Notes: generated by a model from the letters alone, not told the origin. A stretch of 64,000 nt of DNA from Fibrobacteria bacterium (GCA_041746255.1 JBGTHM010000030.1:7182-71181); one strand, 5' to 3'; numbered from the stretch's first letter, positions 23,027-47,630 are shown. Translations and numbers: made by a program.

Positions 23027-23060
23027 AATTCCTTCGATTCGATACGGGGTTGCAAACGGC

Positions 23061-24296
23061 TTAGGATGCGTCCTCCGGTTCTTGTTTCTTGGGCGCGAAC
23101 AGCGACTCCAGCTCGGAGAACTTGCTGGAAGCCGGGGTGGCCACTGACTGGGCCGAATCGCCGGTGCCCGGAATCTTGACGCCTTCACGCGGCTTGAATA
23201 GGCTTTCCTTGTCCTCGGCCGACATGTCGGTGAATTCGGTGGAGCCGTAAATATCCAGCTCCTTGCCGATGAGCTTGGATGCCAGGCGCACGTTCTGGCC
23301 GCCGCGCCCGATAGCCTGGGAAAGATCTTCGTCGTTCACGATGACCACCACGCGGCCGTCGCCGACGTCGGTTATCTGCTTCAAGTTGGCCGGAGCCAGG
23401 GAGCGTCGGATATAGGTGGCCAAATCGTCGGTCCAGTGGATGATGTCGATGCGCTCGTTCGAAAGCTCGCGAACGATAGCCTGTACGCGGTTGCCCTTCA
23501 TCCCTACGCAAGCGCCTACGGGATCGATGCGATCGTCCTTGGAAGTTACGGCGATTTTGGCGCGGTAGCCGGGATCACGCGAGACGCCGCGTATCTGAAC
23601 GACACCGTCGTGGATTTCCGGTACTTCCAACTCGAAAAGCTTGGCCAGGAACTCGGGATGCGTGCGCGAAAGCAGGATTTGCGGACCCTTGGTGTTGGTG
23701 CTCACGTTGGCGATATAAGCCCGGATGGTGTCGCCCTGCCGGTAACGTTCTTTGCGGATTTGTTCGCGCTGGGGAATAATGCCTTCGGTCTTGCCGAGGT
23801 TGATCAGAATGTTGCCTCTGTCCACCTGCTGCACGGAACCCGATACCATGGTGCCGATGCGATGCTGGTATTCCTCGAAAATCTTTTCGCGCTCGGCATC
23901 CCGTACCTTTTGCAGCAACATTTGCTTCGCGGTTTGAATGGCGGAGCGACCGAAATTCTCGATGGGCACTTCCATTTCCAGGTAATCGCCCGGAACGGCG
24001 TCTTCGTTGTATTCATGGGCCTCTTCGACCAACATGTACTTTTCATCGAGCTCCTGAACTTCTTCCGGAGTCAAATCGGGCGGAACGTCCGGATAATCGT
24101 CAACCACGGTCACTCGCAGGTAAACATGGATTTCGCCGCTTTCCTTGTCGATTTCGGCCTCGATGTTTTTCTGAATCTCAAGGTATTTCTTGGCGGCGTT
24201 GACCAGGCTTTGTTCCAGCGTGGAAATGACGACATCGGTGCCCAGATTCTTGGTCTTGGCGATGAGGTTCAGGTTTTCAAAAATGTCACTCGTCAT
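23061..24296 (-). CDS. nusA: Transcription termination/antitermination factor NusA
   Basis: 411 aa with conserved NusA N-terminal, S1 and KH domains. Confidence 0.95.
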   Translation of the reverse strand: MTSDIFENLNLIAKTKNLGTDVVISTLEQSLVNAAKKYLEIQKNIEAEIDKESGEIHVYLRVTVVDDYPDVPPDLTPEEVQELDEKYMLVEEAHEYNEDAVPGDYLEMEVPIENFGRSAIQTAKQMLLQKVRDAEREKIFEEYQHRIGTMVSGSVQQVDRGNILINLGKTEGIIPQREQIRKERYRQGDTIRAYIANVSTNTKGPQILLSRTHPEFLAKLFELEVPEIHDGVVQIRGVSRDPGYRAKIAVTSKDDRIDPVGACVGMKGNRVQAIVRELSNERIDIIHWTDDLATYIRRSLAPANLKQITDVGDGRVVVIVNDEDLSQAIGRGGQNVRLASKLIGKELDIYGSTEFTDMSAEDKESLFKPREGVKIPGTGDSAQSVATPASSKFSELESLFAPKKQEPEDAS

Positions 24297-25212: not shown

Positions 25213-26067
25213 CTAATCGTTTTCTTTGCCGGACTTATTATCAATAACCTGATTATCCGCTGAAAAACCCCGCTCACGCTGTTTTGCCTCCTCCCAAAGC
25301 CGATCTAATATTTCCAGGGAGGGCTTTTCGGCCGCATCAGGGTGTTTTTCCAGCAAAAGATGTTCTAAAATGCGGAAACGGGTGGAAAATTTCTGATTGG
25401 TGCGGGTTAAGGCTCTTTCGGGATCCACATCCAGTTTTCGCGCCAAATTAATCACCGAGAACAATAAATCGCCCATTTCGGCCAGGATTCCCTCGGCATT
25501 ACCTTCCAAAATCTCCCTTTCCAGCTCCCCTAGCTCCTCGCGGATTTTTTCCAACGGGCCCTGCTCATTGGGCCAATCAAATCCCAGCCGGGCCACTCTT
25601 TTCTGGATTTTTGCAGCCTTGTTGAGAGGGGGGAGTTGGCTGGGCAGATTATCCAGCAGGCTGGGCCTCCCCGCCTCGGAATTTGCCACCCCGGCTTTTT
25701 CGACCTTTTTCAATTCCTCCCATTGATTTTCCACGGCTTTGGATCCGGCCAAAAGCACGTCTCCGAATACATGGGGGTGGCGGCGCACCAACTTGTCGCA
25801 TAATTCTTGTACGACATCGTCGATATTGAAGTGGGAGGCTTCGCGGGCCATTTGGGCATGGAATACGACCTGTAGGAGCAAGTCGCCCAATTCTTCCCGC
25901 ATATTCGGAACATCTTCGTTTTCCACCGCCTCAATGAATTCATACGTCTCTTCGACCAGGCAGGTGAGAATGCTGGCATGACTTTGCTCCCTGTCCCAGG
26001 GGCAGCCATCGGGGGAGCGCAAGCGCGCCATAATTTCAAGCAGGTCTGAAAAAGCGTATTTCGGCAT
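25213..26067 (-). CDS. mazG: Nucleoside triphosphate pyrophosphohydrolase MazG
   Basis: Tandem MazG domains with EExYEF/EELGDLL motifs. The likely start is MPKYAFSD at 26067. Confidence 0.85.
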   Translation of the reverse strand: MPKYAFSDLLEIMARLRSPDGCPWDREQSHASILTCLVEETYEFIEAVENEDVPNMREELGDLLLQVVFHAQMAREASHFNIDDVVQELCDKLVRRHPHVFGDVLLAGSKAVENQWEELKKVEKAGVANSEAGRPSLLDNLPSQLPPLNKAAKIQKRVARLGFDWPNEQGPLEKIREELGELEREILEGNAEGILAEMGDLLFSVINLARKLDVDPERALTRTNQKFSTRFRILEHLLLEKHPDAAEKPSLEILDRLWEEAKQRERGFSADNQVIDNKSGKEND

Positions 26068-26209
26068 AGGCGGCAAGGTAGCAAATGGGGCGGAGGACCA
26101 CCCCCGGGGTAGCATGGCCCCATTAGAGAAGCCTGGGCAAAATCAAACACCTTGCCTAACTGAACAAAAGTGCATTACTTTTGACTTAAACAGAACGTGG
26201 GGGACGGTC

Positions 26210-27547
26210 ATGGCAGCTTCGCCTTCGGTAATATATCCAGCTATAAACAAGGGCGCCGAACGCACCGATTTAACCAGCCTGGGAGTTTGCGAATGCCCTT
26301 CGGGGGCTGATTTCTCGGATGCTTTCTTCGGCCCCCGGAGCGAAAAAGAATTATTGGATTGGCTCGGGCTTTACCTGGTACCCGGCATGGGCGCTTATTC
26401 CTTTAATGCCTTGCTGGAAGCCTTTTCTTCGCCGGAAGCCGTCTTTGCCGCCGACGAGGCCCAGCGTAGGGAAAGGCTGCCCTTCCTCCGGGATTCCCTG
26501 AGTCGCGCCCTCTCCTTGGGTCCCTCCCGTGATGCGGCCGAACGCCAACTGGAGAAGTGCCTAAAGTCGGGCGTCCGGGTTTTGCATGAGTCCTTTGCAG
26601 GTTACCCCGTCGCATTGCGGTCGCTTAACGTGCCTCCTCCCTTCCTGTTCGTCAAAGGAGGGCTTATGGATTCCGATATTCGCGCGGCGGCGGTGGTAGG
26701 CACCCGCAATCCCTCGTTACAGGGGAGCCAGGCCGCCAACGAAATGGCGGAAGAACTGGCCTTGTATGGTTTCACCATCGTTTCGGGCCTCGCCCTGGGC
26801 ATCGATACTTTAGCCCATGAGGCGGCTTTGAAAAAGGAGAAAAGAACCATCGCAGTCGCGGGAGTGGGTTTCGATCAAATTTATCCTCCCGAAAATGCCA
26901 ACCTTTTCCATCGCATCGTGGAGCAGGGCGCCGTGATTTCAGAATATCCCTTTGGCAGCCAAGTCAGGCGCAGCCATTTCCCCCGGCGCAATCGTATCAT
27001 CAGCGGGTTGAGCCGCGCCGTATTGGTAGTCGAGGCCGGCGCCGACAGCGGCGCCCTCATCACCGCCGACTTCGCCCGCAAGCAAGGGCGACCGGTATTC
27101 GCCCTGCCGGGAGCCTATTACTCCAAGGAAGCCCAGGGTACCAATGATTTGGTAAGACGGGGAGCCGGAGTGATTTGCAGCGTCGACGACTTGCTGGCTT
27201 ATTTCGAAAAACTCCATCGAGCCCCGGCTCCACTGAATCCTGAGCAAGGTAAAGAGTTATTTCTGGGAAAAGGGTATTTGCAGCTGAGACCGCGGCGCAA
27301 ACGAATGGCCAGGGAGGTGAGTGGAATATCCGTTTTTCCCAACCCTGAGCTGAGCCCGACTGAAAAGACGATAGCCGCGCTTCTGGAAAAAGGACCCCTT
27401 TCTTTCGATAAACTTTTGGAAGAGACGAAAATACGGTCCGATTCCACAAGCACCGCTGCGGCCGCCACCTTGCCGACCTTGTTGCTGCGACTGGAAATTA
27501 AAAGAGTGATAAAAAAGGAACCGGGAGCGCGTTACGCTCTGGCGTGA
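26210..27547 (+). CDS. dprA: DNA-processing protein DprA (Smf)
   Basis: Rossmann-like DprA core (VVGTRNPS...GLALGIDTLAHEAAL...RNRIISGLS...). The start at M33 of the listed ORF has a strong RBS (GGGGGACGG). Confidence 0.85.
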   Translation: MAASPSVIYPAINKGAERTDLTSLGVCECPSGADFSDAFFGPRSEKELLDWLGLYLVPGMGAYSFNALLEAFSSPEAVFAADEAQRRERLPFLRDSLSRALSLGPSRDAAERQLEKCLKSGVRVLHESFAGYPVALRSLNVPPPFLFVKGGLMDSDIRAAAVVGTRNPSLQGSQAANEMAEELALYGFTIVSGLALGIDTLAHEAALKKEKRTIAVAGVGFDQIYPPENANLFHRIVEQGAVISEYPFGSQVRRSHFPRRNRIISGLSRAVLVVEAGADSGALITADFARKQGRPVFALPGAYYSKEAQGTNDLVRRGAGVICSVDDLLAYFEKLHRAPAPLNPEQGKELFLGKGYLQLRPRRKRMAREVSGISVFPNPELSPTEKTIAALLEKGPLSFDKLLEETKIRSDSTSTAAAATLPTLLLRLEIKRVIKKEPGARYALA

Positions 27548-28961: not shown

Positions 28962-29891
28962 TTGGAAGAACGGTTACGTGAGTATTACCGGTTTTGTCCG
29001 TGGGCGGAGGAATATGGGGTCGAGCCCCGTTTTGAAGTCTACCAGAGGGGAGACGAAGCCGCGGATTCGCTACCGGATATTCGGGGTCTGATTTATTTGG
29101 AAACCGGGGCAAATCCGGAGGAAGTCCGCTTGCTTATCGAGAGCATCCGGAAACGGAATCCCAAGCTGCAAATCGTCCTGATGGTGGACTCCTCCTTCGA
29201 TTATTTCGCCCTCGCCCGTTCCTACCGGATTGGTAACCTCGTGCGTAAGGACGCTTTCGATGGAGATCTTCTTCGAGCTCTGTCAATCCGGCTGCTTACA
29301 GGGAATATTTTCGGTTTCGGCCCCTATTTTCCCCATGGGTTCGTGATCGGGCCACTCTACCGCACCTATAGGGGAAAAGTCGTTTTGGAGGAGGTTTTAC
29401 AGGAAACTTTCCAGTTCTTTCAGCCCTATGTCAATCCGGACGAGAAGGGCACTTTCAAGATGTTTCTACATGAGCTCTTGACCAACACTTTTGCCTATGC
29501 TCTGGAAGGGATTACCCCTGAAGATCGGGACACTAAGCTGTTGCCGCCTTCCCCCGTCTTGGAGGTGCCCGATCGCCGCGCTATCAAGGTCAGTCTGGCG
29601 GTGGATGAGGAAAAAATCGGGTTTTCCATTCAAGATTCCACCGGAAATTTAAGTATGCTGCGCGTTCTGGATAAATTGCGCCGGCAATCTTGCATAGGCG
29701 ACGAAAAGCTGCCACCGGGGGTTTGGGACGAAAGTGGCCGTGGCATGTCACTGGTCTACCGATATAGCCGTTTTATCGTCAATATCCTGAGGGGAGTGAG
29801 GACTGAAACCATTTTCCTGCAATATCGCAAACAGGAACTGAACCGTTTTGAAAGCGTCATTATCACCGAAGTGACACCAGAATACTTGTAA
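28962..29891 (+). CDS. Regulatory protein with a degenerate (pseudo-)receiver-like N-terminal domain and a C-terminal GHKL/HATPase_c-like domain (RsbW/SpoIIAB-like)
   Basis: Receiver-like fold but LIYLETG in place of the phospho-Asp motif. C-terminal N-box ELLTNTFAYA and G-box WDESGRGMSL. TTG start. Confidence 0.4.
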   Translation: MEERLREYYRFCPWAEEYGVEPRFEVYQRGDEAADSLPDIRGLIYLETGANPEEVRLLIESIRKRNPKLQIVLMVDSSFDYFALARSYRIGNLVRKDAFDGDLLRALSIRLLTGNIFGFGPYFPHGFVIGPLYRTYRGKVVLEEVLQETFQFFQPYVNPDEKGTFKMFLHELLTNTFAYALEGITPEDRDTKLLPPSPVLEVPDRRAIKVSLAVDEEKIGFSIQDSTGNLSMLRVLDKLRRQSCIGDEKLPPGVWDESGRGMSLVYRYSRFIVNILRGVRTETIFLQYRKQELNRFESVIITEVTPEYL

Positions 29892-30128: not shown

Positions 30129-31337
30129 GTGATTAAATCCATAATGATGTACGCGCAGAAACCCTTGGCGGGCGCCATGGGAATGTTGCTAATCTCGGTT
30201 TTGACGGTTCAAGCGCAAACCGATTTTCTAACTCCGGGTTTCGGGCAGGCCTCGCCTTCGCTGAATGCAGGTCCGCAAGCGCCCCGTACGGAGCTGTACG
30301 AAGGCGTGGTCAAAAGTAATGTGGCGGCCGACAATACGGTTACCGATTACACTCGACTCCCTCACCTCCTTGGGGGCAGGCAATACATCGCCGGTTTTGG
30401 CGACCTCGATCTGGTGAACGCCGCCTTCGCCTTTGGTGATTCCCACATGAATTGGTTCGGTTTGGCGCGCAGCAGCGCGGATGAGGATGAATTGCGCGCC
30501 GGTGTCGCCTTCGGAGACGCCTTCGGGGCCGGTCTCATTTTGGCGTTAAACCGGGAGCATATCGAAGGGGGCGCTCCGGCTACCATAACCCATGAAGGGC
30601 AGGGTTTCGGATTGTTCGGCAGCTTCAACTTGGGTGGAAGTTCGGTTTACGGTGAAGCGGCTCTTTACACGGGGTTCGCTAATCTGTCCGACAACGTGCA
30701 TAATTCCATCAATCCCGAAACCGGTGACCCTACCAACTTCTCGAAATTTCATTTTGTGGCTGGATGGAATATGCAGGCTCAAGCGCAAGGGGACCATGCC
30801 ATGAACGCCGAGCTTTCCTTCGGTTTGAGCAGCGGTGAAGTTCCGGGACCTCCCGCTTTTGAACCAAGCCGGACCGACATCGCACTCTGGTTTCAGCACG
30901 GCTATCTCATGCTCCAACGGGACGGATTTTCCGTTTTCGCAGGAAGCAATAATGGATTCGTTTACGCCGCTGCCGAACAATTGACCGCCGGCGGCCCCGA
31001 TCTGAGCGGCATGGCGTTCGCTATATCCCCCAACATGGCTTTCCAGAAAACCCTGCCCAAGGGATTTGAAGTCCAAGCCGGCATTTCCGCTACCCTGGCG
31101 TATCTCTCGGGTTTGGCGGGCACAAACCTAGACCAAGACGAGACCCTCCTCATTACGGGCGATACCCCCTTTCAACGGGCCACCGGCGCCGACATGTCGG
31201 TGGGCTTGCGTTGGCAACATGAGAATTTCGCCTTCGAAGGAAGCGTGCAGGAAACCCTGCTTTCCAACGGCCCCCAATTCATCGGCGGTGGCGCTCCCGG
31301 TCTCTTCGGTCAAATCGGAATGACGGTCGGTTTTTGA
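30129..31337 (+). CDS. Outer-membrane beta-barrel protein of unknown function
   Basis: Signal peptide (MGMLLISVLTVQAQ). Gly/aromatic-rich alternating strands. C-terminal ...GMTVGF ending in Phe. Confidence 0.5.
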   Translation: MIKSIMMYAQKPLAGAMGMLLISVLTVQAQTDFLTPGFGQASPSLNAGPQAPRTELYEGVVKSNVAADNTVTDYTRLPHLLGGRQYIAGFGDLDLVNAAFAFGDSHMNWFGLARSSADEDELRAGVAFGDAFGAGLILALNREHIEGGAPATITHEGQGFGLFGSFNLGGSSVYGEAALYTGFANLSDNVHNSINPETGDPTNFSKFHFVAGWNMQAQAQGDHAMNAELSFGLSSGEVPGPPAFEPSRTDIALWFQHGYLMLQRDGFSVFAGSNNGFVYAAAEQLTAGGPDLSGMAFAISPNMAFQKTLPKGFEVQAGISATLAYLSGLAGTNLDQDETLLITGDTPFQRATGADMSVGLRWQHENFAFEGSVQETLLSNGPQFIGGGAPGLFGQIGMTVGF

Positions 31338-31379: not shown

Positions 31380-31856
31380 ATGCTGATAAGACTTGACCAA
31401 ACCCTTATCGACTCGGTCCTGAAAAGGGCTCGCATCAGCCCCCGTAAAAGGGCCAACCACAATTTCCATCTACCCCATGAAACGCTACAACGGATGTTGA
31501 ATGTAGCGCTGCGTGACTCGTATTTTCGGCCACATAAACATGAGAACCCCGATAAACGCGAAATATTCACTCTATTGAAGGGGCGGGTGGCTATCATCCT
31601 GTTCAAGGATAACGGCGGGGTACAAGAAGCGGCCTATCTCAATGAAGGCGGACCGGTGTTACAGGTGGAAATTCCCCCAAGGCAGTGGCATACCGTGGTG
31701 GTGATGTCTGAAGAGGCTGTGCTCTACGAAATTATCGAGGGAGCCTATGACCCGCGCACCCACAAGCAATTCGCTGATTTCGCCCCTGCCGAAGGGGCCC
31801 CCGGTGCAGCGGAATATTTACAAAGCCTACGGGAAAGTTTGGCCCATGAGGCATAA
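31380..31856 (+). CDS. WbuC-family cupin-fold metalloprotein
   Basis: 158 aa. Motifs match the WbuC-like cupin family (...FHLPHETLQRMLNV...HKH...WHTVVVMSEEAVLYEI...). Confidence 0.5.
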   Translation: MLIRLDQTLIDSVLKRARISPRKRANHNFHLPHETLQRMLNVALRDSYFRPHKHENPDKREIFTLLKGRVAIILFKDNGGVQEAAYLNEGGPVLQVEIPPRQWHTVVVMSEEAVLYEIIEGAYDPRTHKQFADFAPAEGAPGAAEYLQSLRESLAHEA

Positions 31857-33331: not shown

Positions 33332-34075
33332 ATGAAATCATTATTGGTCGCGGCGTTGCTGGCACTGGGAGCCACTGCCGCTCCTTCAGATTTTCAGGGA
33401 GTCATCGACATGGACATCGCCTTGTCGGCGGGCAAAGGGCAATTGCAATTGAAAGTGGGAGAGCCCGCCACCCGTATCGACATGAGCCTGGAAATCAAGC
33501 CCTTACCCCAACCCCTTCGCTTCGCCTTGCTCCTGAAAAATGACAATATGAAAACCCTTTATATGATAAGCGATCATACCCGCTCCTACAGTGAAATCGA
33601 TATCAGCGACAAGGTTGCGGGTAATGAAGAAAAGGGCGGGCCCTACGTTATCAAAGTCGTAGGAAACGAGAAAAGATTGGGCTATAATACCACCGTGGTG
33701 GAAATGACGCGACCCGGCGAGCAGGTCAAACTTTGGGTAAGCAAGGATATCGGCATCTATTCCATCTTCAAAAGGTTGCAGGCCGCCAATCCCCAGCTGG
33801 GAGGCCAAGCTGAAATCCTGTCCGCGTTGGAAAAAGCCGGCCATGCGGGTTTCCCGATGAAATCAGTGATTACCCAAGACGGAGAAACCGTCACGCTGGA
33901 AGTGAAGAAAGTGGAAAAAAAGAAAATCCCTGTATCCGAAGTCTCCCTTCCCGCCGGTTATACCCAGGCAGCCATTTCCCCGGGCGCGTCAGGAGCCGGC
34001 ATGCCGAAAGTCTCGCCTGAGCAACTTGAAGCCATGCAGAAAATGCTGGAGGATGTGCTCAAGGGTCAACAATAA
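33332..34075 (+). CDS. Secreted protein of unknown function (DUF4412-like)
   Basis: Signal peptide MKSLLVAALLALGATAAP. Its stop lies 2 bp before the next gene's start. The listed ORF start at 33260 is probably too far upstream. Confidence 0.45.
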   Translation: MKSLLVAALLALGATAAPSDFQGVIDMDIALSAGKGQLQLKVGEPATRIDMSLEIKPLPQPLRFALLLKNDNMKTLYMISDHTRSYSEIDISDKVAGNEEKGGPYVIKVVGNEKRLGYNTTVVEMTRPGEQVKLWVSKDIGIYSIFKRLQAANPQLGGQAEILSALEKAGHAGFPMKSVITQDGETVTLEVKKVEKKKIPVSEVSLPAGYTQAAISPGASGAGMPKVSPEQLEAMQKMLEDVLKGQQ

Positions 34076-34077
34076 CA

Positions 34078-34763
34078 TGTTTTTTTTCGTGGGGCGGCAG
34101 CCAGACGACGAAAGTTGCGGCATCACCTGCCTCCAGTCCATTTACCGTTTTTACGGGCATGAAATATCCTGGGAACGTCTAGCAGGCGAGATCGAGCATT
34201 GGCGAACCGGGGGCACGGTGAATGTGAACCTGGCGCGTCATGCCTTGCGCGAAGGTTTCTCCGCCGAAATCTGCACCTATAACATCCGCATATTCGATCC
34301 CACTTGGAGAGGCTTATCTTCCGGGGAGCTTTCGCACAAACTAAAGCTCCGTCAGGCGAAAATGCGGAGTAAGAAACAGAAAATGGTCATCGGTTTCTAC
34401 CTCGACTTTCTGGAACGGGGGGGAGTCATCCGGTTCGACGACCTTAACGAAGGTCTTTTCGATACCCTGTTCGAGGAAAACCGACCTATCATCGTAGGAC
34501 TTTCGGCGACCTATCTCTATCAAAGCATGCGGGAAACGCCCAATAACGTGGACAACGACATCATTGGCCAGCCCGTGGGTCATTTCGTGGTGGTTTCGGG
34601 TTGGGACCGTGCCAGGCGCGAAGTCATCATCCACGATCCTCTGCGCAAGAATCCCATCGCGGAGTCCGGCAATTACAACCTCCCCTTCACCAAGTTCAGC
34701 AACGCCGTTATGTTGGGCATCATCACTTACGACGAAAACCTCCTTATCATTTCAAAAAAATGA
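34078..34763 (+). CDS. C39-like papain-fold cysteine peptidase
   Basis: QPDDESCGITCLQSIYRFYG gives a Gln/Cys catalytic motif. A downstream His/Asp pair lies in GHFVVVSGWD. Start at MFFFVGRQ; the listed ORF 34026 includes upstream read-through. Confidence 0.55.
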
Positions 34764-36286
34764 CAAAACAATATTATGTGGTCGAGAACCCCCGGTACTG
34801 GCGGAAGCGCGTGCCGCAAGTCGAATTTTTAAGCGTCAGCGAATACCTGTTTTCCAAAGAATACCAGGACGTCAAACAGCTGCGCATCATCAATCTGGCC
34901 CGCAATTACGGCTATTTGGGCGCGGGCTATTACGTGTCGCTGGTGGCCGAAGCCCGCGGACACCAGGTGATTCCCAATTTATCCACGGTTCAAGCCTTAA
35001 GCCGGAAAGAGTTCTATCTCATCGAAACCGACGATTTGGACGCGCAAATCCAGAAGAGTCTGGCGAATATCACCGACGATAAGTTCGAGTTGAGCGTCTA
35101 TTTCGGCCGCAACGTGAATAAAAAATACGAGAAGCTTTCGCGCCTTTTCTTCAACTTGCTGCCATGCCCCTTGTTTCGGGTGCATTTCGTCAAAGAGAAG
35201 CGGTGGGCACTGCATTCCATCAAGCCGGTGGCATTGGATAAAATCCCTGCCTATCACGACGAAATTTTCATGGAGGCTTTGCTCGATTTCGGGGTACGAA
35301 GATGGAGCCTACGCAAGCGCGCGAACACCTTGCGCTACGATTTGGCCATTCTCTTCAATCCCCACGAAAGGTATTCTCCTTCCAGTGAAGCGACTCTCCA
35401 GAAGTTCATCAAGGCGGGAAAGACCGCCGGTTTGGCAGTGGAAATTATCGAGAAACGGGATTATGCCCATCTGCCCGAATTCGACGGATTGTTCATACGC
35501 GAAACCACCGCAATCGATCATCACACCTTCCGTTTCGCGCGCAAGGCCGAAAAAGAGAACATGGTGGTCATTGACGACCCGCGCTCCATTCTTTACTGCA
35601 CCAATAAGATTTTTCTGAACGAGGTGTTCAAGCGCGCCGGTGTCCCGCGGCCGCGCACCCTGGTGCTCAGCGAGGAAAACCTGGAGTCGTCGCTGCAGGA
35701 ATTCTCCTTTCCCATCATCCTTAAAATTCCCGACGGATCGTTCTCGCGCGGTGTGGTCAAGGCACGGGACGCGGCGGAACTCAAGGCGCATAGCAAAGAA
35801 TTTTTCCGTCATTCCGATTACATCATCGCCCAGGAGTTCATGCCCACCGAATTCGATTGGCGCATTGGAATCTTCAACGGAAAGCCCCTTTTCGCATGCC
35901 AATACTTCATGTCCCGCGACCACTGGCAGATTATCAACCACAAGGTCGAGGGCAGCGGCCGACTGGGCAACCATAAAACCCACCCTATCGAGTTGATGGA
36001 AGAAAACATTATCGCAACGGCCCTGAAATCATGCAAGTTGATAGGCGACGGCCTTTACGGCGTCGACTTGAAGGTGGTCGAGGGCAAGCCCTATGTTGTG
36101 GAGGTGAACGACAATCCCAATATCGATACCGGAGTTGAGGATGAGCTGCTTAAGGATAAGCTTTACCAGATAATCATGGAGGAATTCGCGGTGCGAATCG
36201 ATAAGCGGCGAATGCGCAAGGATGGTTCGGCTGGTCAGGCTGCGCAGGATTTACCGAAGCTTATGAATTCCAAGGGGTACGCTTGA
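34760..36286 (+). CDS. RimK-type ATP-grasp ligase (alpha-L-glutamate ligase-like) with a ~250-aa N-terminal extension of unknown function
   Basis: C-terminal ATP-grasp motifs (PIILKIPDGSFSRGVVKA..., IIAQEFMPTEFDWRIGIFNGK, GVDLKVVEGKPYVVEVNDNPNI). ATGA start/stop overlap with the peptidase gene. The true start is MTKQYYVVEN. Confidence 0.7.
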   Translation: MTKQYYVVENPRYWRKRVPQVEFLSVSEYLFSKEYQDVKQLRIINLARNYGYLGAGYYVSLVAEARGHQVIPNLSTVQALSRKEFYLIETDDLDAQIQKSLANITDDKFELSVYFGRNVNKKYEKLSRLFFNLLPCPLFRVHFVKEKRWALHSIKPVALDKIPAYHDEIFMEALLDFGVRRWSLRKRANTLRYDLAILFNPHERYSPSSEATLQKFIKAGKTAGLAVEIIEKRDYAHLPEFDGLFIRETTAIDHHTFRFARKAEKENMVVIDDPRSILYCTNKIFLNEVFKRAGVPRPRTLVLSEENLESSLQEFSFPIILKIPDGSFSRGVVKARDAAELKAHSKEFFRHSDYIIAQEFMPTEFDWRIGIFNGKPLFACQYFMSRDHWQIINHKVEGSGRLGNHKTHPIELMEENIIATALKSCKLIGDGLYGVDLKVVEGKPYVVEVNDNPNIDTGVEDELLKDKLYQIIMEEFAVRIDKRRMRKDGSAGQAAQDLPKLMNSKGYA

Positions 36287-37506
36287 ACTATAAGCCATTT
36301 GAAGTATTCGGTATTGAAATCGAATATGCCGTCGTGGGGCGCGATAACCTGCAGGTAAAGCCCGTGGTGGACAAGCTAATCACCACCTTGTGCGGAAGCC
36401 CCAACCTGTTTCCCACCTTGGGAAATGCGGAAGCCGATAACGAACTGGCAGCCCATGTGGTCGAAATGAAATGCAAGGTCCCCACGGCGGATTGGGCCGC
36501 CCAGGCGCGCGACTTCCAACAAATGGTCTCGCTTCTCAATAAAACCTTGGACGGTTTGGACTCCCGTCTCATGCCCGGAGGTTCGCATCCCTTTATGGAC
36601 CCGGCCCGGGAATCGAAATTGTGGGAGCATGACGGCCGCGAAATCTATTCGACCTATGACGGCATTTTCGGATGCCGCGGTCATGGCTGGTTCAATCTTC
36701 AGAGCGTGCATTTGAACCTGCCCTTCTCCGATGACGCCTCGTTTAACCTTCTGCATAATGCGGTCAGTCTATTGCTCCCCCTTATGCCGGCTTTGGCGGC
36801 GGCTTCACCCGTATTGGAGGGCAAGCGCCATGCCTGGAAGGACGCCCGGCTTTTCCATTACTTGCAAAACCAAAGACGATTTCCTTCTGTTATCGGTCCG
36901 GTGATTCCCGAGCCATTGCGAAGCGAAGCGGAATACCGAGCGAAGATTTTGGCGCCTATGTATAGGGAAATCGCTTCTTCCGATCCGGAGGGGTTGCTCC
37001 AGGATGAATGGCTCAATTCCCGCGCGGCCATCGCCCGTTTCGATCGGGGCGCCATCGAGGTGCGCTGTATCGATACGCAAGAATGCCCGCTCGCCGACCT
37101 GGCCCTCTGTTTTTTCTTTTCCGGATTGTTGCGCGCGCTGTGCGAATCGAGGGCGGATTTGTACGGAGCGCATGCGGAGGTGCCGGGTGGAGTTTCGCGG
37201 GCACTATTCGAGGACTGCGCGCGCGTCGGAATGGATGTGCTTCTGCCGAAGGTTTATCCGCAGGAAGTTTTCGGCCTTAGCCAGAGGGAACGCAGCGCGC
37301 GGGATTTTTTCCAGGATCTACTGTCGACCGGCTTCGCATATGCCACCGTAGCGGAGAATGCCTTATTCCGACCTGTGATTGAGCATATCTTGACGCGGGG
37401 AAGCTTAAGCGATCGAATCATACGGTTGGCCGGCCCGAGGGAGGACTGGCTTTCGGCCTATAGGGAGGTGTGTGAATGTCTCGCTACAGGGCGTTTGCTG
37501 GAGTAG
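36283..37506 (+). CDS. GCS2-family (YbdK-like) carboxylate-amine ligase / glutamate-cysteine ligase family 2 protein
   Basis: N-terminal FGIEIEYAVV and an overall GCS2-like sequence. 4-nt start/stop overlap with the ATP-grasp gene. Confidence 0.65.
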   Translation: MNYKPFEVFGIEIEYAVVGRDNLQVKPVVDKLITTLCGSPNLFPTLGNAEADNELAAHVVEMKCKVPTADWAAQARDFQQMVSLLNKTLDGLDSRLMPGGSHPFMDPARESKLWEHDGREIYSTYDGIFGCRGHGWFNLQSVHLNLPFSDDASFNLLHNAVSLLLPLMPALAAASPVLEGKRHAWKDARLFHYLQNQRRFPSVIGPVIPEPLRSEAEYRAKILAPMYREIASSDPEGLLQDEWLNSRAAIARFDRGAIEVRCIDTQECPLADLALCFFFSGLLRALCESRADLYGAHAEVPGGVSRALFEDCARVGMDVLLPKVYPQEVFGLSQRERSARDFFQDLLSTGFAYATVAENALFRPVIEHILTRGSLSDRIIRLAGPREDWLSAYREVCECLATGRLLE

Positions 37507-40296: not shown

Positions 40297-40890
40297 TTAT
40301 TTGCGCGAAACGAAAGGGTTGTCCGCGAGGTAGAAGCGCAGCGGCAAATCGGCTCCCTGGGTAATGCCGATGCGCGTGGTGGTAACCACGTTTCCCCCCA
40401 AGGACGCTTGCCCGAGTTTAAGGCGGTTCCGGTTGCTTAAACGCAGGCTTCCCCGGTTTAAAGCCGCTCCGTTCTGGGAGAGGTTAATGTCCATGGCCTG
40501 TGCCAGTCGCCCGGGTCCGCTGCAAAGCCCTTTGCCGGTAGCCCCGGCACGGCGTTTGGCCATAAGGTCAAGGCCTTCCACGGGTTCTAACGCTCTTACC
40601 AGTACCGCCTCCCCGATGCCTTCAGGAGCTGTGACCACATTGAAACAGTGATACATGCCGTAGATGAGGTAAACATAGGCGGTTCCGGGGGGGCCGAACA
40701 TGGGCGAATTGCGGCGGGTTTGGCCTCTGGAAGCGTGGCAGGCGGGGTCATCGCGCAAGTAGGCTTCGGTTTCCACGATGCGGCCCACGGTTCGCCCTGC
40801 CGGACTTTCGTGCACCAGAAAGGTCCCAAGCAATTGGCGGGCAACGGTTACCGTATCCTGGTTGAAAAAATTACGGCGGGGTTGATGCAA
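40297..40890 (-). CDS. mpg: DNA-3-methyladenine glycosylase (Mpg/AAG family)
   Basis: 197 aa. Conserved AAG-family motifs ([24 protein letters not shown]). Confidence 0.85.
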
Positions 40891-41087: not shown

Positions 41088-42404
41088 ATGCGGATTGTAA
41101 TGATGACCAATACGTATTTTCCGCATGTGGGCGGTGTGGCGCGGTCGGTCACGGGATTCAGCGAAGGGTTGCGTAACTCCGGTCATCAGGTGATGGTGGT
41201 GGCGCCGGAATTTCCGGATATGCCGGAGGAAGAGGTGAACGTCGTCCGCATCCCGGCCATTCAGCGATTCAACGGGAGTGATTTTTCGGTAAGGCTTCCG
41301 GTGCCCGGCTTTTTGGATGAGCCCCTGGAGGAGTTTTCACCTGAGATAATTCACTCTCACCATCCCTTTCTCGTTGGGGATACCGCGGTGCGCGTGGCGT
41401 CGGATAAAGGCCTTCCGCTGGTTTTCACCCATCACACGCTTTATGAGCAATACACCCATTACGTTAACGAACAATCCGAGGCGCTCAAACTTTTCGTGAT
41501 GGACCTTTCGACTGGTTACGCCAATTTGTGCGACCGCGTGGTGGCGCCCAGTCAAAGTATCGCCGATTTACTGGTCAAAAGGGGCGTGACCACTCCCATT
41601 ACAGTGGTTCCCACGGGCATCGATTTACAGCGCTTCAAACCCTCCGATCGAGTGTCGTTCCGCCGCGCCCAAGGAATACCCCCAGAGGCCTTTCTGGTGG
41701 GACATGTGGGGCGTTTGGCACAGGAAAAAAACCTGGCCTTTCTCACCGAAACCGTGGCGGCTTTTTTGCAAAAAAATCCGGAAGCATGGTTTATTCTGGT
41801 GGGCCAGGGTCCGCTCGAGCCGGAGTTACGGGGGATCTTGTCGAATCGCGGGGTGTCGGAACGGATTCGCTTTCTGGGGGTGTTGGGAGGGGATGAGTTG
41901 GCGGAGGCCTATGGTTGCATGGACGTCTTCGCGTTTACATCGCATAGCGAGACCCAGGGCATGGTTTTGGCCGAAGCGATGGCCTGCGGTGTGCCGGTTG
42001 TCGGCCTCGACGCGAGTGGAGTGCGCGAGGTGATTCGGGATTATGAAAACGGACGTCTTTTAAAACGGCAAGACGGTGAAGATTTTATCGCGGCCCTGGA
42101 ATGGGTCGGCTCACAGGATGAAGAAGGCGGCTCCCGGCTGCGTGAAGGGGCTTTGGCCACCGCACGCGACTTCTCACAGGAAAGCTCGGTGAAAAAGATT
42201 GTCGGCGTTTACAACCAGGCTCTTGAATTTCGCCGGCGCTCCTGGGAAGTATCCGAAGACGACCTCTGGTCTCAGGCGATTCGACGCATCCAGGCGGAAT
42301 GGGGGCTTCTCTCTAATTTGGCTCATGCGGCGGGTATGGCCATTTCCGGCTCCGATATTCCCACACTGGAAGCGGACCCTACCGGAACGGTCCATAATTC
42401 ATGA
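41088..42404 (+). CDS. Family 4 (GT-B) glycosyltransferase
   Basis: N-terminal MRIVMMTNTYFPHVGGVARSV, with a C-terminal EX7E-type region (GMVLAEAMACGVPVV). Confidence 0.8.
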   Translation: MRIVMMTNTYFPHVGGVARSVTGFSEGLRNSGHQVMVVAPEFPDMPEEEVNVVRIPAIQRFNGSDFSVRLPVPGFLDEPLEEFSPEIIHSHHPFLVGDTAVRVASDKGLPLVFTHHTLYEQYTHYVNEQSEALKLFVMDLSTGYANLCDRVVAPSQSIADLLVKRGVTTPITVVPTGIDLQRFKPSDRVSFRRAQGIPPEAFLVGHVGRLAQEKNLAFLTETVAAFLQKNPEAWFILVGQGPLEPELRGILSNRGVSERIRFLGVLGGDELAEAYGCMDVFAFTSHSETQGMVLAEAMACGVPVVGLDASGVREVIRDYENGRLLKRQDGEDFIAALEWVGSQDEEGGSRLREGALATARDFSQESSVKKIVGVYNQALEFRRRSWEVSEDDLWSQAIRRIQAEWGLLSNLAHAAGMAISGSDIPTLEADPTGTVHNS

Positions 42405-44830
42405 TTCAGGTTTTGGAAACGGGTCTTCGACGCCTGCGTCTTCTGGTAAGCCGAAGCGAATGGTCGCTTCGCTTTTTGAAGCTCGACCCTTCCGAGCTCC
42501 CCGAGTCGCAAAAGGGCCTGCTCATCATTCAAATCGATGGCCTGGCGCGTTCCCAGCTCGAAAAGGCCATTAAAGCCGGTCGCATGCCGTTTCTCCGACG
42601 GCTCCTGAAACGCGAAGGCTACTCTTTACATACAGTCTATTCAGGCATGCCGTCATCCACTCCGGCCGCTCAAGCGGAACTGTTTTATGGGGTAAAAGGC
42701 GCGGTACCGTCGTTTAGCTTTAGGGATAACGATACCGGTCGCTTCTCCGCCATGCTCCACCCCGAGGCTGCTCGTAAGGTGGAAAATCACATGGAGAAAG
42801 AGGGAGAGTCTCCGCTGCTGCGGGATGGCTGCTCCTATATGAATATTTTTACCGGCGGGGCCAAGGAATCGCATTTTTGCGCCTCATCCTTGGGTGCTGC
42901 GGATATCTGGAAACAGACCCGCTTCTGGCGCTTTTTTCCCGTGCTTCTCTGGAACCTGCGTAGCGTGGTGCGGCTGGTAACACTCCTTTTCGTCGAAATT
43001 TTTATCGCACTTTACGATTCGGTGCGGGGCGCCATCAAACTGGGCGAATATCGCCGCGAATTCATCTTTGTTTTTACGCGGGTGATTGTAGCGGTGGGGC
43101 TGCGCGAGCTGGTGGCGATTTTCGGAAGCATGGACGTGACTCGCGGTATGCCAATCGTGCATGCCAACTTCTGCGGTTACGACGAGCAGTCGCATCGGCG
43201 TGGTCCATCTTCGCGATTCGCCCAGTTCACCCTACGGGGCATAGACGGAGCCATCAAGCGATTGTGGCATGCGGCGCATCGCTCGCCGCGCCGCGATTAC
43301 GATATCTGGATTCTTTCCGATCACGGCCAAGAAACCGTCACGTCTTACTATCGCGAAAAAGGAAAATCGTTGCACGAGGCGATTTCTGAACTCCTGGGAT
43401 TAGAGGAAATAATTCCGACGAAAACCGGCAGGAATCAGGGCGGTGAAATGATGACCTTGGGGGGGAATTTCGAAAGTTACCTCCTCAAAGGGTTTCGTTG
43501 GATGAACAAAGAGTTGGTCGCGGCTTTTCCAATTTTACAAAAGGAAGTGCTGGTCACTTCCATGGGGCCCGTAGGTCAGTTGTATCCACCGGGACCCCTT
43601 AGTGCGGAGCAGCGAGAGGCCATGGCGGAAAAATTGGTGGCCGAACTGGGAATTCCCATTGTTCTCACCGCAGTACCCACGGAAAACAACGATCTGTCCG
43701 GCGAGGGAACGACTCCGGGTAGAAAAGCCTTGGCCTATACCGCGTCGGGACGGTACTTACTTCCGGAGGAAGCCGCCCCAGTTTTGGGTGAAAAACATCC
43801 CTTCCTGGAAGAATGCGCGCGCGACTTTGTCGATATCTGCCATCACCCCAATGCCGGCGTTTTCGTTCTTAGCGGTTGGCGGCCCCGAGGGCGCTCCCTC
43901 ACCTTCGGCTTTGAAAACGGGAGCCATGGAGGCCCCGGGTATGAGGAAACGCGCGCCTTTGCCCTGCTTCCGGGAAACGCGCCGCTTCCGGCCTATAAAG
44001 GCTACCTGCGCCACTCCGATTTGCGCGAAGCGGCCTTTCATGTGCGGGGACGGCGTTCGACGCTCTTGGACTACCGCCGCAAGGTACGTTTGGCCGAGAA
44101 AACCCTGCGGGTAATGACCTATAACATCCATGGCTGTGTCGGCATGGATGGCAGGGTATCCGCGGAGCGCATCGCCGAGGTGATCGATCATTACGAGCCG
44201 GATGTCATCGCCTTGCAGGAAAGCAAATCCTACCCTACCGGGCATCGCTATCAAAACCAAGCCGAAGAAATCGCCCATATCCTCATTCAGCGCTTTCATT
44301 TCCATTTGACCCCGCAGGTTGAGCAGGACGATTACGGAAACGCGATACTAAGTACCTTGCCTATGCGGCTACGTAAAAGAGGGCATTTGCCCACTCTGCA
44401 AAATCGCAATCTGGAGGAAAGGGGAGCCTTGTGGGCGGAGGTAACCCTACATGGGCAGAAATTGCAATTCATCAATACCCATCTGGGTTTGTTCTCCCAG
44501 GAAAGAATGCTCCAGGCCCAACATCTACTGGGAAAGGAATGGTTGAGTTCCGATGATTTCGAGGAGCCGGTAATCCTGTGCGGAGACTTTAACGCTTTTC
44601 CCTGGTCGGCAGCTTATAAAAAACTCGCACAAAGGCTCTATGAAGCCCAGGAAAATATGGCTTGGCATAAGCCCCTCGGTACGCTTTGGGGTCGCTATCC
44701 CGTCAGCCGAATCGACCATGTTTTCTGCAGTGTGGGTATCGAAACCCTTAAAATCGAGGTCCCTCGCACCCAATTGACCCGTTTGGCCTCGGACCATTTA
44801 CCGATTATTGCCGAATTGACCATTCCTTGA
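42401..44830 (+). CDS. Fusion protein with an N-terminal alkaline-phosphatase-superfamily phosphodiesterase/nucleotide pyrophosphatase-like domain and a C-terminal endonuclease/exonuclease/phosphatase (EEP) domain
   Basis: LLIIQIDGLARSQLE...TPAAQAELFYG resembles the type I phosphodiesterase metal-site. The C-terminal LRVMTYNIHGCVG...VIALQE...RIDHVF fits the EEP family. Start overlaps the GT4 stop. Confidence 0.6.
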   Translation: MIQVLETGLRRLRLLVSRSEWSLRFLKLDPSELPESQKGLLIIQIDGLARSQLEKAIKAGRMPFLRRLLKREGYSLHTVYSGMPSSTPAAQAELFYGVKGAVPSFSFRDNDTGRFSAMLHPEAARKVENHMEKEGESPLLRDGCSYMNIFTGGAKESHFCASSLGAADIWKQTRFWRFFPVLLWNLRSVVRLVTLLFVEIFIALYDSVRGAIKLGEYRREFIFVFTRVIVAVGLRELVAIFGSMDVTRGMPIVHANFCGYDEQSHRRGPSSRFAQFTLRGIDGAIKRLWHAAHRSPRRDYDIWILSDHGQETVTSYYREKGKSLHEAISELLGLEEIIPTKTGRNQGGEMMTLGGNFESYLLKGFRWMNKELVAAFPILQKEVLVTSMGPVGQLYPPGPLSAEQREAMAEKLVAELGIPIVLTAVPTENNDLSGEGTTPGRKALAYTASGRYLLPEEAAPVLGEKHPFLEECARDFVDICHHPNAGVFVLSGWRPRGRSLTFGFENGSHGGPGYEETRAFALLPGNAPLPAYKGYLRHSDLREAAFHVRGRRSTLLDYRRKVRLAEKTLRVMTYNIHGCVGMDGRVSAERIAEVIDHYEPDVIALQESKSYPTGHRYQNQAEEIAHILIQRFHFHLTPQVEQDDYGNAILSTLPMRLRKRGHLPTLQNRNLEERGALWAEVTLHGQKLQFINTHLGLFSQERMLQAQHLLGKEWLSSDDFEEPVILCGDFNAFPWSAAYKKLAQRLYEAQENMAWHKPLGTLWGRYPVSRIDHVFCSVGIETLKIEVPRTQLTRLASDHLPIIAELTIP

Positions 44831-46220: not shown

Positions 46221-47630
46221 TCAGGTTACCGAACGCAAATAGTTTTCCACCTCCGTCTGGATTTCGCGCCGCACCCCGGCGCGGTTCCGGCTCAGGTTTT
46301 TAAGGTCAAGCCGTCCGATATACTTGGTACTGATGAGCGGGCGTAATACCGACATGGGAATATTGCAGGGATTATTCAGCAAGGCCAAGGGCACATCTCG
46401 GTTTGCGAAACCGGAATAAAGGTGTTTCGACTTGGCGATGGTGGTAAGCACCGGAACGGAGCGGCACACGGCCACCACATGCGCCACTATGCCTGGAGCC
46501 TGGTTCACCTTGGGGTTGTTCAGCAATCCTTCCAGCACCGAGTCGCGGGAGATATTCTGGTTGATGAGGGTGCGCATGTCCACGGAAATCTCGTCCCCCT
46601 TCAAGTAGGGAATGGACAGCATGTCCTTGCCAATCCACTGCGCATAGGCGCGGTGTCGCAAATCCACTTCGATATGGTCGCGAAAAATCTTCGCGCCGCT
46701 GCCCGTCAGCCTACCCATCAACACCTTGGCTCCCACCTCACCCTGAAGGGTGAAAAGCCCCTCGTCATAACCCTTAAGAGCGGTTTCCAGGCAATCCAGC
46801 GGCGTAGGAGTTTCTTCCATCGCTTCGGCTGCCCAGCGGCACAACGTGCTCAGGGCGATCAAATCGGCGGAAGCAATTTTCTTCTCCAATTGTAAGGAGA
46901 GGATGCGGGTTAATTGAGCCAGTTCCGCGCGCTTTTGCACCTTTCCCCACCATTTCTCGAATGCGGCCGGTTTCATGCGGTCGGCCAATGTGAGCGTGGG
47001 TTGGCCTACGGGCTCGCGGTACTTGAGACGCTTAGCGAGTTCGAGTCCGCCCTGCACCAACTCGTCATAGATGCGCAGTCGCGGGAGTACCCGCGCCATT
47101 ACCTTCATGTCATAGGGGTCTACGTTTTCGGATAGCCAATCAACCCGCTCCCTTAATGCCAGCGCTTCGCATTCGATGAGGAGAATTATCGCATCTACTT
47201 CCGGTTCCGCTATGGGCTGCCCCGCCAGCAGCCCTTCAAACTCCTTTCGCGCGCGCTTTACCGCCTCCTTGAAATCGGAAAGGCTCCAAAGCGCCAATCC
47301 ATCGCGGAGGGTTTTCGCCAATTGCAACTCATGCGGAGAATGGGCGCAATTGGATTCGATGCGCATGAGGATTCGTTGCAGGCGTTGGACACGGAGGGCG
47401 CGCCTGCCGATATGGGCGTGGGCCGGTTCGATATGGAGAAGGCTGAGACAGAGGCGCTCCAGCCAATTGCGGGAAGGTTCCGTTTCACCCAATAGCGCCA
47501 ATAAATCATCTGCGGGTAAGCGCTCTTCGGTGCCGACGAAGAATTGGGCCAGCTTTTCCGCGCCCATAGCATAATCCTGAAGCTTTTCCAACTCGTTTTC
47601 AATGAGATTCCAGGGGGATGGGAGCTTCAC
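46221..47630 (-). CDS. Hypothetical alpha-helical protein
   Basis: 469-aa ORF with no recognisable catalytic motifs. Confidence 0.5.
   Translation of the reverse strand: MKLPSPWNLIENELEKLQDYAMGAEKLAQFFVGTEERLPADDLLALLGETEPSRNWLERLCLSLLHIEPAHAHIGRRALRVQRLQRILMRIESNCAHSPHELQLAKTLRDGLALWSLSDFKEAVKRARKEFEGLLAGQPIAEPEVDAIILLIECEALALRERVDWLSENVDPYDMKVMARVLPRLRIYDELVQGGLELAKRLKYREPVGQPTLTLADRMKPAAFEKWWGKVQKRAELAQLTRILSLQLEKKIASADLIALSTLCRWAAEAMEETPTPLDCLETALKGYDEGLFTLQGEVGAKVLMGRLTGSGAKIFRDHIEVDLRHRAYAQWIGKDMLSIPYLKGDEISVDMRTLINQNISRDSVLEGLLNNPKVNQAPGIVAHVVAVCRSVPVLTTIAKSKHLYSGFANRDVPLALLNNPCNIPMSVLRPLISTKYIGRLDLKNLSRNRAGVRREIQTEVENYLRSVT

Follow-up and report, generated by a model that had tools for sequence, protein, structure and literature searches.

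A three-gene cassette of a C39-like cysteine hydrolase, an RLAN-ATP-grasp ligase and a GCS2 ligase: a widespread variant of the predicted amidoligase-peptidase operons

Iyer, Abhiman, Burroughs and Aravind are said to have predicted in 2009, by comparative genomics, a class of operons in which amidoligases are combined with a peptidase. Operons that contain ATP-grasp ligases together with COOH-NH2 or GNAT ligases are a recurrent theme, associated with successive ligations (PMC4431377); a RimK-clade ATP-grasp gene adjoins a protease gene in the RimK/RimB system (PMC10092738); a papain-fold enzyme and an ATP-grasp ligase act on small acyl or peptidyl substrates in the pairs CtaG/CtaD and BtrH/BtrJ (PMC7183216); and a GNAT–DUF3335 fusion is mentioned in a paper that refers to Iyer et al. 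2009 (PMC10318531). The locus described here occupies positions 33332-37506 of a stretch of 64,000 nucleotides (nt) from a Fibrobacteria bacterium (GCA_041746255.1, JBGTHM010000030.1:7182-71181), the whole of which is called the window below. An earlier note, made from the sequence alone, had described it as a compact four-gene operon encoding a secreted protein, a C39-like cysteine peptidase, a RimK-type ATP-grasp ligase and a GCS2 carboxylate-amine ligase. Comparison across genomes shows that the conserved unit consists of three genes, not four: a papain-fold (C39-like) cysteine hydrolase (referred to as the peptidase), a ligase in which an RLAN domain precedes a RimK-type ATP-grasp module, and a divergent GCS2 ligase. 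An ATP-grasp ligase, a COOH-NH2 (glutamine-synthetase-like) ligase and a peptidase are thus linked, as in the predicted class of amidoligase-peptidase operons, and a variant with GNAT is found in addition. No experimental study of the cassette was found in the literature; the exact triad may already figure in Iyer et al. 2009.

Conservation and setting of the cassette

A search with the peptidase returned 1248 protein clusters, and, with each GTDB species represented by a single genome, relatives of it were detected in at least 592 species. Gene neighborhoods were surveyed by tblastn with the window proteins in the best 80 loci among these at least 592 species (loci carry an L number where they must be told apart), and 70 of them, each with at least 3 kb downstream, could be tested for gene order. 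The peptidase, RLAN-ATP-grasp and GCS2 genes follow one another in that order on one strand in 68 of the 70, with a median estimated gap of 17 nt between the first two across the triad loci; the two exceptions are a solitary peptidase (L070) and a locus in which the peptidase is followed directly by a gene of the N-formylglutamate amidohydrolase (FGase) family, without ligases (L042). The best 80 loci include Fibrobacterota (the window's own clade, 63-72% identity), Opitutales and other Verrucomicrobiota, Planctomycetota, Cytophagales and other Bacteroidota, and Balneolales, as well as Myxococcota, Desulfobacterota, Thermodesulfobacteriota, Leptospiraceae, Omnitrophota, Hydrogenedentota, Oligoflexus and Tectomicrobia. 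The order is kept in bacteria of at least a dozen phyla, and the cassette moves as a block between unrelated neighborhoods. The block picked out by the earlier note is therefore conserved, as a triad; its remark that such ligases are rarely seen with a C39-type peptidase does not hold, since a C39-like domain accompanies this ATP-grasp subfamily in all triad loci and the combination extends to at least 592 species.

Chance adjacency of a housekeeping rimK, a housekeeping ybdK and an unrelated peptidase could appeal to the generic family names of the three proteins and to nothing more. It is countered by the gene order and strand that 68 of 70 loci from many phyla share, by the overlapping junctions, and by the scores of both ligases, which are far under the RimK and YbdK equivalog cut-offs; the synteny refutes this explanation, whose probability is practically nil, and the locus is a real conserved amide-ligation/peptidase system, as had been supposed. 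In the window its genes and domains are arranged as follows:

33332-34075, + strand: DUF4412 protein with a signal-like N-terminus (MKSLLVAALLALGATAAP), 247 amino acids (aa); full-length Pfam DUF4412 match, 138.9 bits
34077-34763, + strand: papain-fold (C39-like) cysteine hydrolase, 228 aa; PF13529 and PF03412; first gene of the triad
34760-36286, + strand: RLAN+RimK-type ATP-grasp ligase, 508 aa; second gene of the triad
34760-35329, + strand: RLAN domain (ligase residues 1-190), best seen as a degenerate RimK/LysX-like ATP-grasp copy
35330-36286, + strand: RimK-clade ATP-grasp module; Pfam ATP-grasp_3 and RimK; nucleotide and Mg motifs intact
36283-37506, + strand: divergent GCS2 / glutamine-synthetase-like carboxylate-amine ligase, 407 aa, TTG start; third gene of the triad

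As read from the sequence, the DUF4412 and peptidase genes are joined by TAA, 1 nt and ATG, the peptidase and ATP-grasp genes share an ATGA overlap, and the ATP-grasp and GCS2 genes share a TTGA overlap with the GCS2 gene starting at TTG; this TTG was taken as the start because the conserved N-terminal FGIEIEY motif would otherwise be excluded. A second assembly of this sequence, processed with an independent gene caller, gives the same four products (247, 228, 508 and 407 aa). The junctions of the cassette in the window are translationally coupled, and the DUF4412 gene is probably co-transcribed with it across the 1-nt spacer. Genes, domains and tight packing are as the earlier note described them, overlapping junctions included, except that its 2-bp spacer is a single nucleotide. 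The Pfam domain matches of the four proteins all exceed the curated cut-offs, among them those to the Peptidase_C39, RimK/ATP-grasp and GCS2 families that the note had named for checking; that of the flanking EamA protein alone falls under. A scan for promoters and terminators gave fewer matches than shuffled sequences did.

The block is flanked by the genes of an EamA/DMT-like permease (Pfam EamA 26.8 bits, just under the 28.2-bit cut-off) and of an MMPL/HpnN-like RND transporter (Pfam MMPL). Genes for DUF4412, DMT and MMPL proteins lie near the cassette only in the closest Fibrobacteria loci (L005-L010), with DUF4412 upstream of the peptidase only in L005-L009 and not in L001, L010 or other phyla; neither Fibrobacteria L001, which is more distant, nor any other phylum surveyed has any of the three. 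Because they are confined to the closest Fibrobacteria while the triad order holds elsewhere, the unit comprises three genes, and the DUF4412 protein and the DMT/MMPL transporters are local synteny outside the conserved cassette.

These distributions bear directly on the proposal, put forward in the earlier note, of a four-gene system for a secreted or tagged peptide, in which the C39 enzyme would process the peptide, the DUF4412 protein would take part and the DMT and MMPL transporters would export it. The single nucleotide between the DUF4412 and peptidase genes in the window, the recurrence of DUF4412, DMT and MMPL near the cassette in L005-L010, and the export-coupled leader cleavage performed by classical C39 domains would all suit such a system. 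A secreted or exported product is nevertheless unsupported, because the hydrolase has no signal peptide, no conserved precursor gene accompanies it, and the DUF4412, DMT and MMPL genes are limited to a subclade; the peptidase is moreover stand-alone and not fused to an ABC transporter, and no transporter family recurs across phyla. The proposal is now scarcely probable, being largely refuted by the neighborhood survey, and neither the DUF4412 protein as a component, nor the transporters as export partners, nor export itself has been borne out.

When open reading frames (ORFs) of at least 70 aa were clustered across the loci, only the FGase gene recurred beyond the triad, and no carrier protein, like no transporter family, recurs across phyla in the surveyed loci. 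No conserved ORF of 18-90 aa is present beside the cassette in ~80 loci, the apparent clusters being peptidase N-termini or antisense frames. A reading as a ribosomally synthesized and post-translationally modified peptide (RiPP) system with a precursor peptide was rejected, as small-ORF clustering around ~80 loci gave artefacts only, and so was a reading as a defense system, PADLOC having returned no defense-model match for any of the four window proteins. A plasmid search yielded RLAN ligases that are solitary or proteobacterial (Azospirillum, Pseudomonas aeruginosa, Legionella), and no further triads.

The remainder of the surroundings is unexceptional. Ordinary chromosomal genes lie at 20093-24296 (- strand), 25213-27547, 40297-40890 (- strand), 41088-44830 and 47806-48897 of the window, and the surrounding genes comprise a nusA-infB pair and genes for MazG, DprA, a methylpurine DNA glycosylase, a GT4 glycosyltransferase, a phosphodiesterase/EEP-domain protein and a MurG-like GT28 protein; in Fibrobacteria L001 a DprA gene likewise precedes the cassette, at a distance of a few kb. 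A WbuC-family cupin (31380-31856, + strand; TIGR04366, 137 bits) is encoded upstream of the DMT gene, and such a cupin is also found near the cassette in Fibrobacteria L006 and L007, there on the opposite strand. A 402-aa ORF at 30129-31337 (+ strand), Gly/Ala/Phe-rich, with a signal-like N-terminus and without a Pfam or NCBIfam match, may encode an outer-membrane protein, and ORFs of 309 and 469 aa (28962-29891, + strand, and 46221-47630, - strand) have no Pfam match at E<=1e-4.

The three enzymes

The peptidase scores 36.5 bits with Peptidase_C39_2 (PF13529) and 33.9 bits, against a cut-off of 22, with Peptidase_C39 (PF03412). None of the residues Q8, C14, H169 and D187 varies among 18 homologues, the most distant of which is 44% identical, and the four coincide in alignment with the Q..C and H..D(P) motifs in the C39 domains of ComA and PCAT1, at positions that we take to be the catalytic residues of ComA; the Gln/Cys...His/Asp arrangement recognized earlier, and with it the Cys/His dyad, is thus kept in the alignment. 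Relative to ComA, an insert of ~90 residues separates the Cys lobe from the His strand. The AlphaFold2 model is confident (predicted local distance difference test, pLDDT, 88.8) and adopts a papain fold in Foldseek, where the best matches are the pseudomurein endoisopeptidase PeiR, the C39 domains of PCAT1 and ComA, a Bacillus C39-like protein, AvrRpt2, phytochelatin synthase and CtaG. Because these matches reach only 10-18% identity and a template-modeling (TM) score of 0.4-0.56, no characterized enzyme is close to the peptidase; a sequence search of solved structures likewise gave no close match, with ComA reached by profile search only. The translated product of 228 aa has neither a signal peptide nor a fused ABC transporter, and the enzyme is cytoplasmic and stand-alone.

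The second protein carries a RimK-clade ATP-grasp module in its C-terminal 300 residues, with the ATP-grasp motifs intact (ILKIPDGSFSRG; DWRIGI; GVDLKV...VVEVNDNPN), including the Lys/Gly-rich loop and the D..E.N Mg-binding motif, and with Pfam ATP-grasp_3 (PF02655) and RimK (PF08443) above cut-off. In NCBIfam it comes nearest to rimK_fam and LysX, with scores that reach half of the curated cut-offs or less; the RimK family model TIGR00768 gives 73.9 bits (cut-off 143.4), and a sequence search of the PDB matches LysX, RimK and Ddl. Ahead of this module, RLAN (PF14401, 155.8 bits against a cut-off of 25) covers residues 27-172 and has the invariant motif N45-L-x-R48-x-Y50-x-Y52...G56-Y57-Y58...R66-x-H68, whose richness in Asn, Arg, Tyr and His suggests a ligand site. 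Modeled alone (pLDDT 89.3), RLAN independently matches ArgX and LysX in Foldseek (TMq 0.5-0.58), and from these matches the domain is best seen as folding like a degenerate, shortened copy of a RimK/LysX-type ATP-grasp module. The RLAN-ATP-grasp family is far larger than that of the peptidase, with more than 8000 homologous clusters of this architecture, and its members are annotated at NCBI as 'RimK family protein'.

The third protein matches GCS2 (PF04107) with 87.3 bits against a cut-off of 21, and the YbdK equivalogs with 43.1 against 176.4 (TIGR02050) and 37.8 against 371 (PRK13515-13517). A search of the PDB with the single sequence gave no match at E<=0.01; YbdK (1r8g) is found only when the family profile is used, in an alignment that includes the metal-binding GIELE motif. 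Candidate catalytic residues E12, E14, H58, E61, H102, R247, R252, E259 and R261 are invariant; among them, E12, E14, E61 and H102 answer to the metal-binding Glu and His residues of the GCS2 family. All three proteins of the cassette keep their catalytic residues and are apparently active.

Accessory partners and possible function

The only gene to recur beside the triad encodes a protein of the FGase family (PF05013, ~240 aa). It is present in 35 of the 68 testable loci (for instance L049:11342-12070, L015:11371-12111 and L089:7775-8482); in 33 of these 35 it comes immediately after GCS2 and is read in the same direction, an example being the cultured halophile Aliifodinibius; in L042 peptidase and FGase stay together without ligases.

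Further contexts were sampled from the ATP-grasp side, where a C39-like domain is paired with the ligase in 5 of 7 cases and the ATP-grasp is solitary in 2 of 7. One solitary case (L091, P. aeruginosa plasmid record NZ_CP133752.1, 38432-40021) is an RLAN-type 'RimK family alpha-L-glutamate ligase' with no adjacent C39-like or GCS2 gene; ggt and an operon for a glutamate/aspartate ABC transporter lie within a few kb. In three proteobacterial loci (L085:4902-7470, L086:4744-7485 and L090:3856-6473; the hosts are Acidihalobacter ferrooxydans, a Burkholderiales genome and a gammaproteobacterial metagenome-assembled genome) a fusion of GNAT with DUF3335, a C39-like domain, is encoded immediately upstream of an RLAN-ATP-grasp. 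These ligases share ~48% identity with the window ligase over the full length, a similarity equal to that of triad ligases from other phyla, and homology between the DUF3335 domain and the window peptidase extends through the entire catalytic core, Q..C to H..DP inclusive (hhalign 95%, E 2.5e-8). None of the three loci has a GCS2 gene, and an M20 amidohydrolase is encoded divergently upstream in two of them (L085, L090), with an ArgA-like gene as its neighbor in L090. Since these loci keep the pairing of ligase and C39-like domain without GCS2, that pairing is the older link, and GNAT and GCS2 look like alternative second amide-forming partners of the ATP-grasp.

Enzymes of the GCS2 family join a carboxylate to an amine, and FGase and M20 families act on small N-acyl amino acids; in every characterized RimK-clade relative, to our knowledge, the amine that receives the carboxylate is the alpha-amino group of Glu or of a Glu-like acid. 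Together with the substitution by GNAT, these properties suggest that synthesis of a small N-blocked, Glu-containing peptide or amide would be the most economical model, and there is about an even chance that the cassette is a cytoplasmic module that builds and hydrolyzes such a compound. In the first step GCS2 would use ATP to join a carboxylate to an amine, the resulting amide being possibly a gamma-glutamyl-type or other N-blocking bond; the replacement of GCS2 in Proteobacteria by a GNAT fused to the C39-like domain argues that this step may be an N-acylation of the acceptor. The RimK-clade ATP-grasp would then add one or more Glu residues, and the product, a small N-blocked, Glu-containing peptide or amide, would be kept inside the cell. 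The papain-fold Cys enzyme would hydrolyze or transfer one bond and, in the half of the genomes that have it, the FGase-type N-acyl-glutamate amidohydrolase would act on another; with bonds made by the ligases hydrolyzed in this way, the level of the compound would be set by synthesis versus breakdown. The degenerate RLAN copy would serve as a substrate-binding or regulatory module. The assignment of a gamma bond to one ligase and an alpha bond to the other is plausible at the level of the families.

Several considerations weigh against this model. The substrates of C39 proper are peptides and proteins (Gly-Gly leaders), that of RimK proper is a protein, and a protein target encoded elsewhere is possible; the substrates proposed for the cassette would be family-level analogies. 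The window cassette has no FGase gene, and FGase is lacking in half of the loci. The argument from displacement of GCS2 by GNAT is drawn from three proteobacterial loci, sampled by hand, and the RLAN-ATP-grasp is solitary in two sampled loci (a Methylococcaceae contig and P. aeruginosa). Finally, the Cys enzyme could be a bond-forming transacylase rather than a hydrolase, since papain-fold relatives of the C39/BtrH type are documented as transacylases (PMC7183216).

A protein target is the starting point of an alternative in which the cassette would tag proteins reversibly: the RimK-type ligase would extend a protein encoded elsewhere, at its C-terminus or on a side chain, with a Glu tail, GCS2 would cap or branch the tail, the C39-like peptidase would erase it or expose the acceptor, and the RLAN pseudo-ligase would recognize the target. 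Such tagging is possible, though on the unlikely side. Across ~80 loci, no candidate target, LysW-like carrier or small ORF is conserved within the cassette or next to it; this argues against tagging, as do the NCBIfam RimK and LysX scores, far under cut-off, and the recurrent accessory FGase and M20 proteins, which come from families known for small N-acyl amino acids. In its favor, the RimK clade includes protein modifiers (RimK on S6, LysX/ArgX on LysW), RimK, LysX and ArgX are the best structural matches of both ligase halves, the closest PDB sequence relatives of the peptidase are peptide-directed C39 domains, and the invariant Arg/His/Tyr-rich patch of RLAN would suit an acidic tail; the rimK-rimB protease operon of Pseudomonas provides an analogy (PMC10092738). 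A narrower version, in which the cassette would be a widely distributed and so far unrecognized system that writes and erases a post-translational peptide tag distinct from RimK-S6 glutamylation and from pupylation, is unlikely; equally so is the division of labor that it implies, with RLAN docking the protein, the RimK-type module and GCS2 building a short capped Glu tag, and the C39-like peptidase removing it.

The model of a small N-blocked Glu-product has a sub-case of its own in a glutathione-like thiol pathway, where GCS2 would be a gamma-glutamylcysteine ligase, the ATP-grasp would be GshB-like, and the papain-fold enzyme would be a gamma-Glu-Cys transpeptidase or amidase resembling phytochelatin synthase. 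The weak NCBIfam matches of the ligases to glutathione synthetase (PRK12458, E 1e-16) and glutamate-cysteine ligase models point this way, as do phytochelatin synthase Alr0975 among the structural matches of the peptidase (TM 0.40-0.50) and the proximity of the solitary P. aeruginosa RLAN-ATP-grasp in NZ_CP133752.1 to ggt and the Glu/Asp ABC transporter. However, the ligase reaches 60.9 of 408 bits with PRK12458 and 26 of 272 with PRK05246, the glutamate-cysteine ligase models give 25-28 against 409-427 bits, the ATP-grasp matches RimK and LysX better than GshB, and the GNAT that takes the place of GCS2 in Proteobacteria would be unfit for gamma-Glu-Cys formation; the thiol pathway is thus decidedly unlikely.

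In soil, freshwater, marine and soda-lake bacteria from a dozen phyla, at least 592 species genomes hold all three enzymes together. If their product were identified, the gain would be either a new metabolite that contains Glu, conceivably an osmolyte, a thiol or a storage compound, or a new protein tag in bacteria. Thousands of proteins whose annotations as 'RimK family protein', 'C39 domain-containing protein' or 'glutamate-cysteine ligase family' are now misleading would also receive a function. The alternation of GNAT and GCS2 and the pseudo-ligase nature of RLAN offer handles for biochemistry, and cultured hosts of the cassette include Aliifodinibius, Rhodohalobacter, Pelagicoccus and Fulvivirga.

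Comparison with known systems

The RimK/RimB/S6 system resembles the cassette in that a RimK-clade ATP-grasp with conserved motifs is encoded beside a protease. RimB is retropepsin-like, whereas the window hydrolase has a papain fold; the window ligase has in addition a 190-residue RLAN domain and a GCS2 partner, and no link to S6 was seen. Glutathionylspermidine synthetase/amidase (GspSA) joins an ATP-dependent amide ligase to a cysteine amidase of papain fold (CHAP), which undoes the bond, and thereby makes and breaks a small-molecule amide in the cytoplasm, much as is proposed for the cassette. It differs in being one fused protein with one ligase and a CHAP domain, where the window has a C39-like enzyme and two ligases of different folds. 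In the synthesis of N-acetylglutaminylglutamine amide (NAGGN; Ngg/AsnO) and N-acetylaspartylglutamate (NAAG; NAT8L and RIMKLA), N-acylation by a GNAT is followed by formation of a dipeptide bond by a RimK-like ATP-grasp. The alternation of GNAT and GCS2 suggests a similar logic here, but the window has neither a GNAT nor an AsnO-type amidotransferase, and those pathways have no counterparts of GCS2 or of the Cys hydrolase; no model of the NAGGN trio is among the NCBIfam matches and no AsnO-like gene was found in the surveyed loci.

The C39 domains of PCAT and ComA share the fold and the Q/C/H/D arrangement of the window peptidase. The window enzyme is instead stand-alone with an insert of ~90 residues, and ~80 loci contain no ABC transporter gene and no gene for a double-glycine precursor. 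The closthioamide (CtaD/CtaG) and butirosin (BtrJ/BtrH) systems combine an ATP-grasp with a C39/BtrH-like papain fold that has a Cys-His-Asp triad (PMC7183216), and CtaG is a distant structural match of the peptidase (TM ~0.4); those pathways are however thiotemplated on carrier proteins and lie in secondary-metabolite clusters, and the cassette loci have no carrier or decarboxylase. No precursor peptide gene of the graspetide or microviridin kind lies beside the ATP-grasp in ~80 loci, and neither ligase reaches the GshA or GshB equivalog scores in NCBIfam. The cassette lacks a defining feature of each of RimK, YbdK, GshA/GshB, the NAGGN trio, a C39 bacteriocin exporter and a graspetide system.

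The uncharacterized proteobacterial pair of a GNAT–DUF3335 fusion and an RLAN-ATP-grasp also resembles the cassette. Its ligase is 48% identical to that of the window, a homologous C39-like domain is encoded immediately upstream, and gene order and tight spacing match those of the window cassette. The differences are that GNAT is fused to the peptidase in the one and a separate GCS2 is present in the other, that the accessory enzyme is M20 versus FGase, and that the C39-like domains belong to different Pfam families (PF11814 in the GNAT variant, PF13529/PF03412 in the window). The cassette is an uncharacterized variant of the class predicted by comparative genomics, in which an ATP-grasp, a COOH-NH2 or GNAT ligase and a peptidase are combined, and not a new category.

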